A stretch of DNA of 64,000 nucleotides from Kiritimatiellia bacterium (GTDB lineage: Bacteria; Verrucomicrobiota; Kiritimatiellia; RFP12; UBA1067): NCBI GenBank assembly GCA_050949565.1, contig JBMNFY010000017.1, positions 1,600,001 through 1,664,000 of the forward strand, written 5' to 3'. This document shows, piece after piece, positions 59,086 through 63,262 of the stretch; the first letter of the stretch is position 1; the number at the start of each line of letters is the position of its first letter. A program made the translations under genes and the position numbers. Below the pieces are notes generated by a model. That model had not been told where the DNA came from. It saw only the letters and a program-made list of their open reading frames with translations, and did not search any database.

Positions 59086-59261
59086 GACAACTAAGGGACA
59101 GGTATTTTGAACCAAAAGGTTGTGTTTCCGATCACCGGTTTTAAGGTTCGATTCAAACGCTTTTATCTCTGATCCTCTGCTCATATGATTCTCTCACCCA
59201 ACGTTGCTCCTCACCAAACACCGCCTACCCTCCGGAGTTTTTAAAATACCTGTCCCTTAGT
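59086..59261. repeat. Inverted pair of RAYT-associated repeats enclosing about 136 bp (REPIN/MITE-like)
   Basis: GACAACTAAGGGACAGGTATTT (59086-59107, +) and AAATACCTGTCCCTTAGT (59244-59261). Confidence 0.85.
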
Positions 59262-59321
59262 TAGTAGTTAGTTAGTAGTTAGTTCAGTTGGTTGTCCGTT
59301 AGTTTTTGTGGGAAATGTTTG

Positions 59322-59364
59322 TTGACACCCATTCCATACTTTTCGATCATGCTTCCATACTTTT
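59322..59364 (+). promoter_or_regulatory. Putative promoter/operator of the AbrB-PIN module
   Basis: TTGACA at 59322; direct repeat TTCCATACTTTT at 59332 and 59353; GGAGG follows. Confidence 0.55.
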
Positions 59365-59375
59365 GGAGGTGAAGT

Positions 59376-59600
59376 GTGTTGACTGCGACCGTTGCTGAAC
59401 GAGGGCAAGTGACGATTCCCAAGGCCTTGCGTGACCGTTTGGGTATCAAGCCGGCGACCGTGTTGGCGTTCAGTGTGAAAAATGGCGTTCTGACGGCTGT
59501 GAAAGTCGTGCCGAATGATCCCGTGGCCGATGTCACGGGATGTCTGGGGGCGGACAGGCGTACGGATGAATGGGTGGCTGAACTGCGAGGCGCACCGTGA
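59376..59600 (+). CDS. AbrB/MazE/SpoVT-family antitoxin (VapB-like)
   Basis: TVAERGQVTIPKALRDRLGIKP. Confidence 0.88.
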   Translation: MLTATVAERGQVTIPKALRDRLGIKPATVLAFSVKNGVLTAVKVVPNDPVADVTGCLGADRRTDEWVAELRGAP

Positions 59601-59783
59601 TCACCGCTGTCGACACGAATGTGCTGTAACAAGACGCCGCGCAGTGATCGAGTGATCGCCGATTTTTTGGTCGCGGCTCATGCGGCCGAGTGCGCAGACC
59701 GTTTGTTGACGCGTGATCGCGGATTCTACCGCACACACTTCAAAGGGCTCTCCCTTGTCGATCCACTGCGTTTGAGCGACTAA
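59597..59783 (+). pseudogene. PIN-domain (VapC-like) toxin remnant with a stop and an internal deletion
   Basis: GTGA overlap, then MITAVDTNVL*; shortly after, RVIADFLVAAHA..ADRLLTRDRGFYRTHF. Both PIN ends are present in about 190 bp and the middle is missing. Confidence 0.8.
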
Positions 59784-59799
59784 ATATCTGCCCCTTAGT
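59782..59799 (-). repeat. Degenerate RAYT-associated repeat downstream of the transposase
   Basis: AAATATCTGCCCCTTAGT (two mismatches to consensus). Confidence 0.7.
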
Positions 59800-59837
59800 C
59801 GTGGTTCCGGTTGTGGTCTGCCGCACCGCCACTGCTA

Positions 59838-60848
59838 CTATGCGCAAGGAAGCTGAACCGGCGCGATGCGGAGCGCGCGTGCCGTCCGCAACTCGCCCCA
59901 TTCGGCGAAACGCATCCTGCGCGCGCCGTCCTTGCGCTTCGGGCCGAAGAGCCGCCGGTTCTGTTCGAACACCCCGTCGACAAACGCCCTGCTGCCCAAT
60001 GCCATCCCGTCCGTGAAGTAGCGTACCCGGCAGTGCAGCACCTGCGGGAGCGTCAGCCTCCCGCCCTCATCGAGCACGTGCGCCACCTCCGCCGCACTGA
60101 ACCCGGGCCGGACGACCTGCCCGCTCTCCTCGACCGCGCGCCGTTCCTCCCCGGCTACGTAGAGCAGCTCACGGCAACTCTTCTGAACCTGCCGCCACTC
60201 GCCAACCCCCGCGCCGTGGACCGCCGCCAGTCCTTCACGCGCCAGTCTGCCGCCCGCGCATGCCTCGCCGTAGCCGCCCCAGCGGTAATCCTTGGGATCC
60301 ACGACAATCCCCGCGCGCACCGGGTTCAGGTCGATATACGCCGCCACCGCCGCCAGCGCCCCCATGGCGCCCTCGATCAGCACGCTTTTGAAGCGGTCTT
60401 CCCAAAGCGTCCCTTTGCGCCCGTGGCGGCCGTTGTAGGACATGCTGTAGCGTTGCTTGAGCGTCTTCACGAACGCGCTCAGGTCGTACATCCGCGCCCG
60501 CAGCCGCTCCTGCTGCTCCTCGACCAAGTGCGCCAGCCCCATCCGCCGCCACTCCGCCCACTGCCGCTGGACGCCCGCGACATGCTTCTTGCCGTAGAGC
60601 AGCGTCATGCGCCGTACCAGTTCAGCCTCGTCCACCTCAGTCCGCTCACCCACCTCGACCAGCAGGTGGAAGTGGTTCGACATCACTGCATAGGTTAGTA
60701 CCCGCACCCCGCAGAACGCCTCCGCGCGCCGCATGATCCCGCGGAAAATCTCTTTCTCCACATCATCCATCTTGAACGCCCGATCCACGATCCGGCTCAC
60801 CACGTGGTAATACCCCGTACCCTCAGCCTTCACCCTCGCCTGCCGCAT
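59838..60848 (-). mobile_element. REP-associated tyrosine transposase (RAYT; IS200-like Y1 HUH endonuclease), long C-terminal type
   Basis: MRQAR..YYHVVSR, HUH motif YAVMSNHFHLLV, GTLWEDRFKS, catalytic YIDLNPVRAGIV.DP.DYRW; RBS GGAGG before ATG 60848; flanked by the repeat on both sides. Confidence 0.92.
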
Positions 60849-61077
60849 GCCTTCCTCCTTCCCGTTCGAACCCCATACCCACATCCGCTCCCATCGGAGC
60901 CTCGCCCTGCCCGTCCGGCCGCGCACCCCCCAAAAAGCTCTCTCAGACAAAAACGTCCGAAAAGCACCGTCAAAAAAACACGCTTCCATTCCCAGAAGCA
61001 CCTCGGCGCTGCCCCGAGCACAGAACACCGTACACTTTACCACCTTCCGCATCTGAGCTACAAGCCTCATTTCTACT

Positions 61078-61223
61078 AAATACCTGTCCCTTAGTTGCAG
61101 AAGAGCCGCCGGTTCCGTTCGAACTCCCCGTCGACAAACGCCTTGCCGCCCAAGCACCATCCCGTCCGTGAAGTAGCGCACTCGGCAGCGCAACACCTAG
61201 TTACAAAATACCTGTCCCTTAGT
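61078..61223 (-). repeat. Two direct RAYT-associated repeats (61078-61095, 61206-61223) enclosing a 99-bp diverged copy of RAYT coding sequence
   Basis: 61100-61198 aligns by eye to 59946-60043 with about 10 substitutions and one indel. Confidence 0.9.
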
Positions 61224-61318
61224 TGAAATTGTCGAGACTTGGCAAGATGAAACCAAGTACGTATACTGGTGCTCTTACTGTCTGGATTAGCCATTCTGTA
61301 AGCCGATACGACACAACC

Positions 61319-62203
61319 ATGACCTTTTTCGAAAAACTTCAGAGCGGTCACCCGACCATTTCGTTTGAATTCTTTCCGCCCAAGACGCCGGAAGGCTGGG
61401 CGCGGCTGTATGCGACGCTGGCCGAAACCGCACGTCTGAACGTGGATTTGGTCTCGGTGACTTACGGTGCTGGCGGCAGTACGCGCGAAAACACCGTGGA
61501 CTTGGTGGCGTCGTTGCAGAACAATCTGGGGTTGCACGCCATGGCGCATCTCACTTGCCTCGGCCATTCGCAGGTGGATCTCTCCAGAATCCTCGACCGG
61601 CTGGCGGAAAAGAACGTGCCGGCCATCATGGCTCTGCGCGGCGACCCGCCGCAGGGGGAGAGCAGTTTCCGCCCGCATCCGTATGGATTCGCCTATGCCA
61701 GCGACCTGATTGGCTTCATCCGTGATGGCTGGCCGCAGTTCAAGATCGGTTGCGCCGCCTACCCAGAGGGCCACCCAGAATCTTTTGCGGAGGGCCAGCC
61801 GCGTTCGCCGGCGCGCGACATCACCTTCTTGAAGCGCAAGCAGGAGAACGGCGCGGACTTTGCGGTCACACAGCTCTTTTTCAGTAACTCGGCTTACCAT
61901 GACTTTGTTGCGCAAGCTCGTGATGCGGGGGTCACGATCCCGCTGCTGCCCGGCATCATGCCGCTGAGTTCGGCCAAGCAGATCGAACGCTTTGTCGAGC
62001 TTTCCGGTTGCTCGATCCCGGACGCCCTGCGGCAGGCGGCCGCCGCCGAGGATGTCGAAGAGGCCGGTTTCTGTTTTGCGCTCGATCAATGTCGCGACCT
62101 GCTGGCGCATGGTGCGCCGGGCATCCATCTCTACACACTCAATCAGTCCTCGCTCTCCGGCCGTATCTTCGCTGCGCTGCGTGCGGAAAATGCCGGTTTG
62201 TAA
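61319..62203 (+). CDS. metF: Methylenetetrahydrofolate reductase
   Basis: ISFEFFPPKT, SVTYGAGGST, AHLTC, LRGDPP, AYPEGHP, TQLFF, HLYTLN. Confidence 0.96.
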   Translation: MTFFEKLQSGHPTISFEFFPPKTPEGWARLYATLAETARLNVDLVSVTYGAGGSTRENTVDLVASLQNNLGLHAMAHLTCLGHSQVDLSRILDRLAEKNVPAIMALRGDPPQGESSFRPHPYGFAYASDLIGFIRDGWPQFKIGCAAYPEGHPESFAEGQPRSPARDITFLKRKQENGADFAVTQLFFSNSAYHDFVAQARDAGVTIPLLPGIMPLSSAKQIERFVELSGCSIPDALRQAAAAEDVEEAGFCFALDQCRDLLAHGAPGIHLYTLNQSSLSGRIFAALRAENAGL

Positions 62204-62275
62204 AAAATTGTGTGCGTCACGATGTGCGTGATGTGGTAACCTCGTGGAAAACTCTTCAGCAACAGGGTATTGTGC

Positions 62276-63262
62276 ATGCGTGTTGTCTTTATGGGATCTT
62301 CGGACGCGTCGGCGGTCACCTTGCGCGCGCTGCTGCGCGCGCCGCAGGTGAACGTGGTCGGCGTCGTGACCCAGCCGGACCGTCCTTCGGGCCGGCGGCA
62401 ACGCTTCACACCCTGTCCCTGCAAGGCGTTCGCGGTTGAGAGGCAAGTCGAGCCGATCATCACGCCCGAGAAGGTCAATGCGCCCGAAGTCTTGGAGCAA
62501 CTCGAGCAACTCAAGCCTGACGTGATCGTTGTGGTCGCCTTCGGCCAGTTCCTTGGCCGACGGTTGCTGGCGTTGCCGCCGCACGGCTGCATCAACGGCC
62601 ACTTCTCGCTGTTGCCCAAGTATCGGGGCGCCGCGCCGGTTCAGGCGGCCATCGCTTCGGGCGACGAGGTCACCGGCGTAACCGTTATGCAGATGGCGGA
62701 GGGCATGGATGACGGCGACATTCTGCTCAAGGCCATCGAGCCGATCTGCTCGGACGATACTGCGGTCACCCTGATGGAGCGCCTCGCGATCCTCAGCGCC
62801 GTCACGATCGTTAAGGCACTGCGCTTGATGATCGCTGGTACGTTGCCGCGCGAACCGCAGGACCACTCGCAAGCGACCTACGCCCCAAAGATGCGCAAGG
62901 CCGACGGCCAGATCGACTGGTCGTTCCCGGCCAGACTCATCGAACGGTGCACCCGCGCTTTCGAGCCATGGCCCGGTGCGTTCACGTTCTTGCCAGTACG
63001 TATCGACAAGACGGGTGCGCCGGAGCGCATCAAGATCTTGCAGGCGGAGATGGTGAGTAATGAGGAGGTGCCCGGGTTTGAGCAGGCTGCGCCCGGCACG
63101 GTCTGTCTGCTCTCACCGACTGGCCCGGTCGTTGCCACCGGCAACGGCCTGTTGCGTCTGACGGCATTGCAGCCCGACGGCAGCCGCCGCATGGACGGGA
63201 AATCCTTTTTGAACGGCCACCCCATGGAGCCGGGTGACCGCTTTTGTAGTGTGCCGCTGTGA
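62276..63262 (+). CDS. fmt: Methionyl-tRNA formyltransferase
   Basis: MRVVFMG, VVTQPDRPSGR, HFSLLPKYRGAAPVQ, MDDGDI, PWPGA. Confidence 0.95.
   Translation: MRVVFMGSSDASAVTLRALLRAPQVNVVGVVTQPDRPSGRRQRFTPCPCKAFAVERQVEPIITPEKVNAPEVLEQLEQLKPDVIVVVAFGQFLGRRLLALPPHGCINGHFSLLPKYRGAAPVQAAIASGDEVTGVTVMQMAEGMDDGDILLKAIEPICSDDTAVTLMERLAILSAVTIVKALRLMIAGTLPREPQDHSQATYAPKMRKADGQIDWSFPARLIERCTRAFEPWPGAFTFLPVRIDKTGAPERIKILQAEMVSNEEVPGFEQAAPGTVCLLSPTGPVVATGNGLLRLTALQPDGSRRMDGKSFLNGHPMEPGDRFCSVPL

Follow-up and report, generated by a model that had tools for sequence, protein, structure and literature searches.

How does a scrap of a transposase gene come to lie between two identical copies of a short repeat, just upstream of the very gene that it resembles? 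The question is posed by a 64,000-nucleotide stretch of a Kiritimatiellia bacterium genome (G000, contig C17, positions 1600001-1664000; hereafter 'the window'), in which the 20-mer AAATACCTGTCCCTTAGTTG occurs on the plus strand at 61078-61097 and again at 61206-61225 with no mismatches. Eight copies with up to three mismatches are present in the window as a whole, against an expectation of 0.00 from 100 shuffles. Read along the minus strand, in the direction of the gene, the outer copy (R3, 61206-61225; sense form CAACTAAGGGACAGGTATTT) comes first, followed by TGTAACT, then by the gene fragment, which abuts the 5' edge (..CTCTTC|TGCAACTAAGGG) of the inner copy (R2, 61078-61097), itself the repeat at the left end, or upstream, of the resident element. 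The two exact repeats enclose 108 nt (61098-61205, minus strand), and 99 nt of this spacer are 88.9% identical, with one gap, to positions 59946-60043 within the neighbouring gene (E 5.7e-30, with the whole 4.66-Mb genome as database). Positions 61100-61198 are homologous to gene nucleotides 803-906, or residues 266-301 of the 336-residue transposase, and carry a frame-breaking 1-nt indel. An earlier, sequence-only reading had described this arrangement of direct repeats around a 3' gene piece, and had quoted two pieces of reading frame from it; on both counts it was accurate, as the list of open reading frames contains one starting at 61196 that includes MLRCRVRYFTDGMVLG... and one stopping at 61091 that ends in ...GGKAFVDGEFERNRRLF, both of which align with residues 266-301.

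The same reading worried that the unit might be a chimera that long reads would fail to span. Single DNA contigs, one each from two runs of different studies, cover 59700-61700 in one piece, with 0-2 differences from the window and no gaps. As these independent contigs span it, the unit is genuine and an assembly artefact is excluded. All sampled words of 60700-61500 are also present in 14 DNA runs from at least nine studies, some of which may be the source sample.

The gene beside the unit (59838-60848, minus strand) encodes a RAYT-like, TIRYT-type Y1 HUH transposase of 336 residues. Residues 1-74 match Pfam Y1_Tnp (E 5.8e-11), while the protein's scores against NCBIfam REP_Tyr_transpos (58.6 bits) and transpos_IS200 (16.7 bits) lie under the respective cutoffs of 80 and 55. 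Residues H59, H61 and Y171 are invariant in 22 homologues, giving the HUH motif and catalytic tyrosine on a Y1 fold that define the Y1 HUH superfamily. A structure model built from those 22 homologues (mean pLDDT 81.5) found as its best solved match in Foldseek 4er8 (E 6e-5), the Escherichia coli TnpA-REP bound to a REP hairpin, followed by the TnpA proteins of ISDra2 and IS608; a single-protein sequence search of solved structures returned no match at E <=1, and a profile search returned weak matches only. The gene segment homologous to the fragment (59943-60046, minus strand) encodes a conserved RVRYFxDG...FV..VF motif, with columns V275-G281 invariant. There is one close copy of the gene in the genome, the remaining homologue found by blastn and tblastn being a distant one on contig C8 (27% identity). 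Between R2 and the start codon lies a 5' leader and promoter region (60849-61077, minus strand) with two terminator-like hairpins (61001-60980 and 60963-60940).

The repeat itself, R, belongs to a dispersed family. With up to two mismatches there are 58 copies on 13 contigs (none in a reversed control); up to three mismatches yield 70, in both orientations, on 14 of the 21 contigs, and up to four yield 80 (three in the reversed control). Three further copies checked in the window all fall in gaps between open reading frames of at least 100 residues. The resident gene is followed, 36 bp after its stop codon, by R1 (59782-59801, minus strand), a degenerate direct copy with three mismatches that forms the right-end repeat and shares one orientation with R2 and R3. 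R1 can fold into a 7-bp stem (-4.8 kcal/mol, z -2.8); as single strands R2 (-0.9 kcal/mol) and R3 (0 kcal/mol) have little tendency to fold, both with z about 0. In a set of 45 variants, the arms on either side of an 11-nt loop are paired in 61% of cells, compared with 55% when shuffled and 36-47% when slid, a value attained in one of 500 shuffles, such that covariation is modest.

Copies of R frequently stand close together: 19 close pairs are spaced by 3 to 518 nt, tight R-R dimers occur (C4:28669/28692), and partial reiterations of 15-23 nt are common. Low-copy matches occur in 12 of 160 R flanks, and among those examined the confirmed gene copies are the fragment unit and a toxin-antitoxin copy. 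The latter is a decayed AbrB/MazE-PIN module (59244-59801) bracketed by R1 and a further copy of R at 59244-59263 (plus strand); it is 82-84% identical to a copy at C8:215176-215862, has lost about 238 bp of its PIN gene, and the stop codon of this truncated gene, on the strand opposite to R1, lies inside that repeat. In the window, four direct copies of R thereby mark off the toxin-antitoxin relic, the transposase gene and the gene scrap as three separate stretches. More broadly, intergenic gaps contain an abundance of other dispersed repeat modules (e.g. at C17:1207341-1207475) with 25 to more than 300 blast matches each, some of them directly beside R in at least eight places, and arrays repeated in tandem every 300 bp are present on C18 (19576-20545) and C5 (12436-13405). 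Cumulative GC skew along the 1.97-Mb contig C17 has a shallow minimum near 1,662,000, roughly 1 kb from the transposase locus, where the mean skew turns from negative to slightly positive (about 40000-64000 in the window). The strand of R shows no clear bias with GC skew on C17, with 18 plus and 14 minus copies before 1.662 Mb and one plus and six minus after it.

Identical direct repeats around a match to a mobile-element gene naturally call to mind a CRISPR array. R differs in being dispersed genome-wide, in both orientations and at irregular spacing, and the 'spacer' here is 108 nt long. Besides the fragment unit there are 17 inter-R stretches of at least 30 nt, of which 12 hold other high-copy repeats, four have no matches or short ones (three unique, one with two short matches) and one is the toxin-antitoxin module copy. 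The repeat-spacer-repeat appearance arises because R is the element's own end repeat.

That R is such an end can be read from the relatives. Of 87 loci with homologous genes, drawn from Kiritimatiellia, Verrucomicrobiota and related MAGs, 35 have a sense-oriented repeat with a GGGACAG core no more than 300 bp ahead of the gene, a motif at a fixed distance from the gene being a mark of TIRYTs; the distance here is 46-296 bp (46-175 bp for the nearest convincing copies of R), and the bases flanking the core vary by genome. The boundaries are visible in G038, a genome with 34 matches to the gene and 64 copies of an R variant of its own; both are absent from its congener G029. The aligned elements of G038 are 88-91% identical. 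Homology among three of them begins exactly at a 23-nt R that precedes the start codon by about 74 bp, and in three of four it stops, again exactly, at a further direct R some 60 bp beyond the stop codon. The R2-gene-R1 layout of the window is that of the G038 element, and likewise occurs in G002, a genome of the same genus as ours (G000). On comparative grounds, R is thus the repeat conserved at the end, or upstream, of a RAYT-like Y1 transposase of TIRYT/TIRtron type. An inverted downstream motif occurs in 12 of 82 loci, with convincing copies in L037-L039, L070-L072 and L104. The link between repeat and gene is not strict among close kin, as G001 has five gene matches and no copy of the exact variant. 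G004, of the same genus, has 34 copies of R and no transposase protein match in a genome that is 78% complete. In G038 and G032 (loci L012 and L030-L041; 52 gene matches in G032) the gene family resembles a multiplying insertion sequence, and G000 has one gene and about 70 repeats, most of them solo. A search of G029 for the empty site of the G038 elements matched one flank, and as the flanks were not adjacent no site could be read.

As far as sequence can define it, the system is a member of the TIRtron kind with direct, rather than inverted, end repeats. TIRtrons, or TIRYTs, are RAYT-like genes with non-REP repeats on their flanks; the repeats have GGGGWSAS in common, and some make up families found in dimers or clusters, according to the parts of Di Nocera et al. 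2013 (PMC3733652) drawn on here. The present locus shares with them a long, C-terminally extended Y1 protein of RAYT-like type, a core (AGGGACAG) that fits the GGGGWSAS-type motif at seven of eight positions, with an exact GGGGACAG in relatives L060 and L072, and a moderately abundant repeat family that is often in dimers or clusters. It departs from them in that the repeats around the gene share one orientation in G000, G002 and G038, where the published definition, in those same parts, has them inverted, and in that Kiritimatiellia/PVC MAGs do not appear as hosts in the portions of the published accounts used. In the parts of Quentin et al. 2018 (PMC6006769) consulted, 20 of the 26 TIRYTs described fall in TnpA-REP subclass 2.1, a feature of which is a C-terminal HTH like Bac_DnaA_C, HTH_23 or HTH_28; the last 140 residues here (197-336) match no Pfam family at E <=10, including any HTH or DnaA_C, and are helical in the model at lower confidence (pLDDT 53-86). 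The REPtron of E. coli is comparable in having one transposase gene with tens of cognate short intergenic repeats, R flanking the gene on both sides and numbering 58-80 copies. It is unlike R in that R lacks a GTAG foot or stable palindrome and is not arranged in the inverted pairs of REPINs or BIMEs, and the protein here falls below the NCBIfam RAYT cutoff and is twice as long.

When, and from what, was the fragment copied? It is 93.9% identical to the orthologue in G002, 88.9% to the neighbouring gene and at most 85-86% to those of other congeners. A lineage about 6% diverged (lineage M; contigs L126 and L127) carries the same R3-fragment-R2 unit with identical junctions, and a third contig from a metagenome scan is identical to the window; the fragment is 93-94% identical to the resident genes of both G002 and lineage M. 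With changes polarised by two outgroups, the resident gene of G000 has acquired four derived changes and one ambiguous one within the 104-nt donor segment, G002 has none, and the resident gene of lineage M equals that of G002 across the segment. Four of these five sites still show the ancestral base in the fragment, the fifth having a third base that lies inside the indel region; these ancestral states survive in the resident genes of G002 and lineage M. The fragments of G000 and M have three derived bases and a small indel in common, and removing the changes private to G000 leaves just these three substitutions and one small indel; the two fragments are separated by three further substitutions and a 7-nt duplication. 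Because the junctions are identical in lineage M, the unit had a single origin: it arose once, before G000 and M split, from a gene like the ancestral resident one. The 11% difference between fragment and gene arose because the fragment drifted while the resident gene gained four to five changes. A local copy made before that divergence explains the numbers, although a closely related donor may have served. A frame of 452 codons (59838-61196, minus strand) opens at a GTG within the fragment, crosses R2 and the leader and continues into the transposase gene; it is probably a chance effect of high G+C, because the 7-nt indel of lineage M would break it.

In G002 both repeats are present with 12 nt between them. 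This genome cannot polarise loss against gain of the fragment, because the locus is a mosaic and its leader haplotype there is about 20% diverged. Compared with L002 (from G002) and L127 (lineage M), window positions 59710-62348 form a recombination mosaic in which the near-identical pair switches with each block of 100-300 bp: across 61238-60953 G000 and M differ by 1-2% with G002 about 20% away, and across 60874-60675 G000 and G002 agree with M 10-15% away. The leader region is 79.6% identical to that of G002, and differs from that of M at one of 94 compared sites in 61046-60953 and at eight of 78 in 60952-60875. In G003, G005 and G006 homology begins at the start codon of the MTHFR gene; neither repeat nor transposase is there, and these genomes are uninformative on the history of the unit.

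Insertion sequences are known to leave deletion derivatives and tandem copies, as in the palindrome-associated elements of the IS200/IS605 group. We give an even chance to a history of this sort, in which the unit is the relic of a 3'-truncated tandem copy of the element that was later shortened by internal deletion. The starting point would have been the resident element (R2 - leader - gene - R1) in a Kiritimatiellia-like host of anaerobic digesters, the donor being the resident gene, or a near-identical allele, in the common ancestor of G000 and lineage M. In a first step, a 3'-truncated copy would have been made whose broken end, at about gene nucleotide 900, was joined to the 5' edge of R2; in a second, an internal deletion would have removed the leader and gene nucleotides 1-802, so that R3 and R2 are now about 100 nt apart. 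Like deletion derivatives of insertion sequences, the unit is a short non-coding remnant with element ends and a scrap of transposase gene. It differs from them in being present as one copy with no sign of mobilisation and in retaining an internal 3' piece, not subterminal ends, and the system differs from IS200/IS605 in scoring below the IS200 model and in having a single-copy gene in G000 (multi-copy in G038 and G032).

The first step has parallels elsewhere. The sequence-only reading had proposed a survey of other RAYT loci for self-derived spacers between repeats, and self-derived pieces were found beside the gene in five of 80 loci surveyed. In L101 (1356-2150) a 707-bp duplicate, 99.9% identical, ends near gene nucleotide 534 and abuts an R array; in L121 (1959-2560) three nested units of 188, 125 and 88 bp end in the 5' part of the gene and each abuts left-end sequence, a boundary confirmed by two other copies in that MAG; and L118 (2170-2400) has many still shorter restarts. 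These nested truncated units upstream of the gene (L121, L118, L101) range from about 12 nt to 707 nt. Tandem copies occur in L049, L008 and L112, a 758-bp partial copy of 80% identity starting at R in L117, and internally deleted gene scraps in L017 (20 bp from a copy of R) and L019. The stacked truncated units suggest a site-specific restart at the left end of the element, which transposase or replication might bring about, and the right junction of our unit, gene nucleotide 900 or so against the 5' edge of R2, fits that pattern. Short C-terminal gene matches were also collected in relatives; nine of the 12 gene-matching stretches lay at contig ends and the matches were dropped as assembly breaks, a thirteenth fetched stretch holding repeat copies only.

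The left junction is open to two readings. The favoured one is R3 followed by the first bases of the leader, then a deletion reaching gene nucleotide 803; alternatively, the TGTAACT that follows R3 is close to TGCAACT, the 7 nt with which R2 and its extension begin, and could be its duplicate, the two flanking DNA inserted into a tight R-R dimer. What survives in the truncated copies of other lineages is the 5' part of the gene, not an internal 3' piece as in the unit of G000, and an intermediate of the form R3 - leader - longer gene piece - R2 was absent from the genomes and contigs searched. A further point against the two-step history is that both fragment ends lie 0-7 nt from an edge of R, so that it needs a deletion endpoint right beside R3; direct insertion would explain such R-adjacent ends more simply.

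Direct insertion is at the heart of an unlikely rival, in which the Y1 enzyme would have excised about 100 nt from its own gene, in single-stranded form, by cleavage at two weak sites, and joined the piece to an R edge in a tight R-R dimer. Such dimers exist in the genome, both junctions are at R edges, the imperfect repeat TGTAACT/TGCAACT flanks the insert, and the stacks of restarted units at the left ends of related elements may be counted in its favour. The protein's best fold match is, moreover, an enzyme of apt habits: in the parts of Ton-Hoang et al. 2012 (PMC3333891) used here, cleavage by E. coli TnpA-REP needs only C^T, strand transfer occurs in vitro and the enzyme is proposed as the builder of tandem BIMEs, so that low cleavage specificity combined with strand transfer offers a route to tandem units and odd junctions. 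The sequence-only reading had noted CT at both junctions and offered strand transfer as one source of the unit. CT does stand at both junctions of the unit (AACT|AGG and TTCT|GCAACT, minus strand), but the donor gene at the matching breakpoints has none (GC|AGG and TTC|GGC, without the T), which counts against the enzyme having cut there and leaves strand transfer as a rival. Target duplication, moreover, is not known from Y1 transposition. There is, further, one such unit in the whole genome, and a literature search found no biochemical work on TIRYT or TIRtron elements, which have been described by sequence comparison alone.

A more doubtful alternative dispenses with the transposase. Here host replication would have stalled at an R hairpin, jumped about 1.1 kb to the 3' part of the gene, copied about 100 nt and returned to R2. 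The copy is indeed direct, and its donor lies on the same strand at a distance of 1.1 kb; the left junction could overlap by AGG and the right by GC, and the common 15-23-nt reiterations of R are what slippage at a structured repeat would be expected to leave. This microhomology is, however, only 2-3 nt, single-stranded R2 and R3 fold weakly, and restart, always at the same element edge in unrelated lineages, suggests a site-specific event.

Capture from a different but related RAYT gene, either a paralog or an incoming copy from another strain, was the source preferred in the sequence-only reading over a local copy, and appears improbable. The fragment is nearer to the orthologues of G002 and M than to its neighbour, the locus is a recombination mosaic between lineages, and relatives hold 2-5 gene copies per genome, all of which would suit a foreign donor. 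The excess distance to the neighbour is nonetheless made up of the neighbour's own derived changes, and in lineage M the fragment sits beside a gene of ancestral sequence. The closer full-length paralog for which that reading had suggested a BLAST search was not found: there is none in the genome itself (blastn, tblastn); in 150 genomes of the family no closer donor appeared, the matches to the fragment being RAYT 3' regions (best G002, 93%); and one metagenome scan, with a 24-nt pattern spanning two fragment-private bases, found the fragment unit three times and no full-length donor. No gene with the fragment's shared derived bases (A, A, T) was found in the 150 genomes or the scan, and capture from a paralog is unsupported; a foreign paralog need not be invoked as the source.

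Lastly, it has been proposed that the fragment is transcribed as a guide or antisense element. A sigma-70-like promoter match for the MTHFR gene (61319-62203) stands downstream of R3 at 61239-61267 (plus strand, 10 of 12 hexamer positions), RNA contigs for this gene from two studies start beyond it at 61288 and 61299, and the RNA contig of X16 ends in the leader at 60931, X16 leaving 60932-61287 uncovered; RNA contigs show neither strand nor level, may include DNA carry-over and count neither way for transcription. That a transcript regulates or guides the transposase, be it as antisense to the 3' region of its mRNA, as decoy or as guide, is scarcely credible: for all that one low-depth RNA contig (X15, depth 2.9) covers 60915-61178, or R2 and 80 nt of the fragment, and that the fragment derives from the most conserved C-terminal motif, it lies in sense orientation, is missing from G002, is conserved no better than its flanks (three substitutions and a 7-nt indel between G000 and M), has no fold signal as a unit (z +0.6, +0.9), bears different frame-breaking indels in G000 and M that give no sign of constraint, and lies outside the RNA contigs of MTHFR, which begin downstream of R3. 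The fragment is most likely inert junk, and the more exciting readings first placed upon it are accordingly set aside.

There is a more adventurous view, to which we give a low probability, that edges of R are live recombination points at which the Y1 enzyme restarts or pastes DNA, such that R-bounded stretches amount to a crude cassette array. If this were true, scraps stacked at R would be a natural record of DNA processing by TIRYTs, and the unit a direct product of it instead of an outcome of slow decay. Taken by itself, the unit is ordinary and provides a modest mechanistic hint. The locus and its relatives nevertheless define an element, a mobile unit that begins and ends at a 20-23-nt repeat, and set one that multiplies like an insertion sequence in G038 against the single gene and scattered solo repeats of G000. 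The one point of wider interest is that truncated copies recur which begin anew precisely at the edge of the repeat, a pattern that marks this edge as the place to seek the cleavage site of the enzyme.
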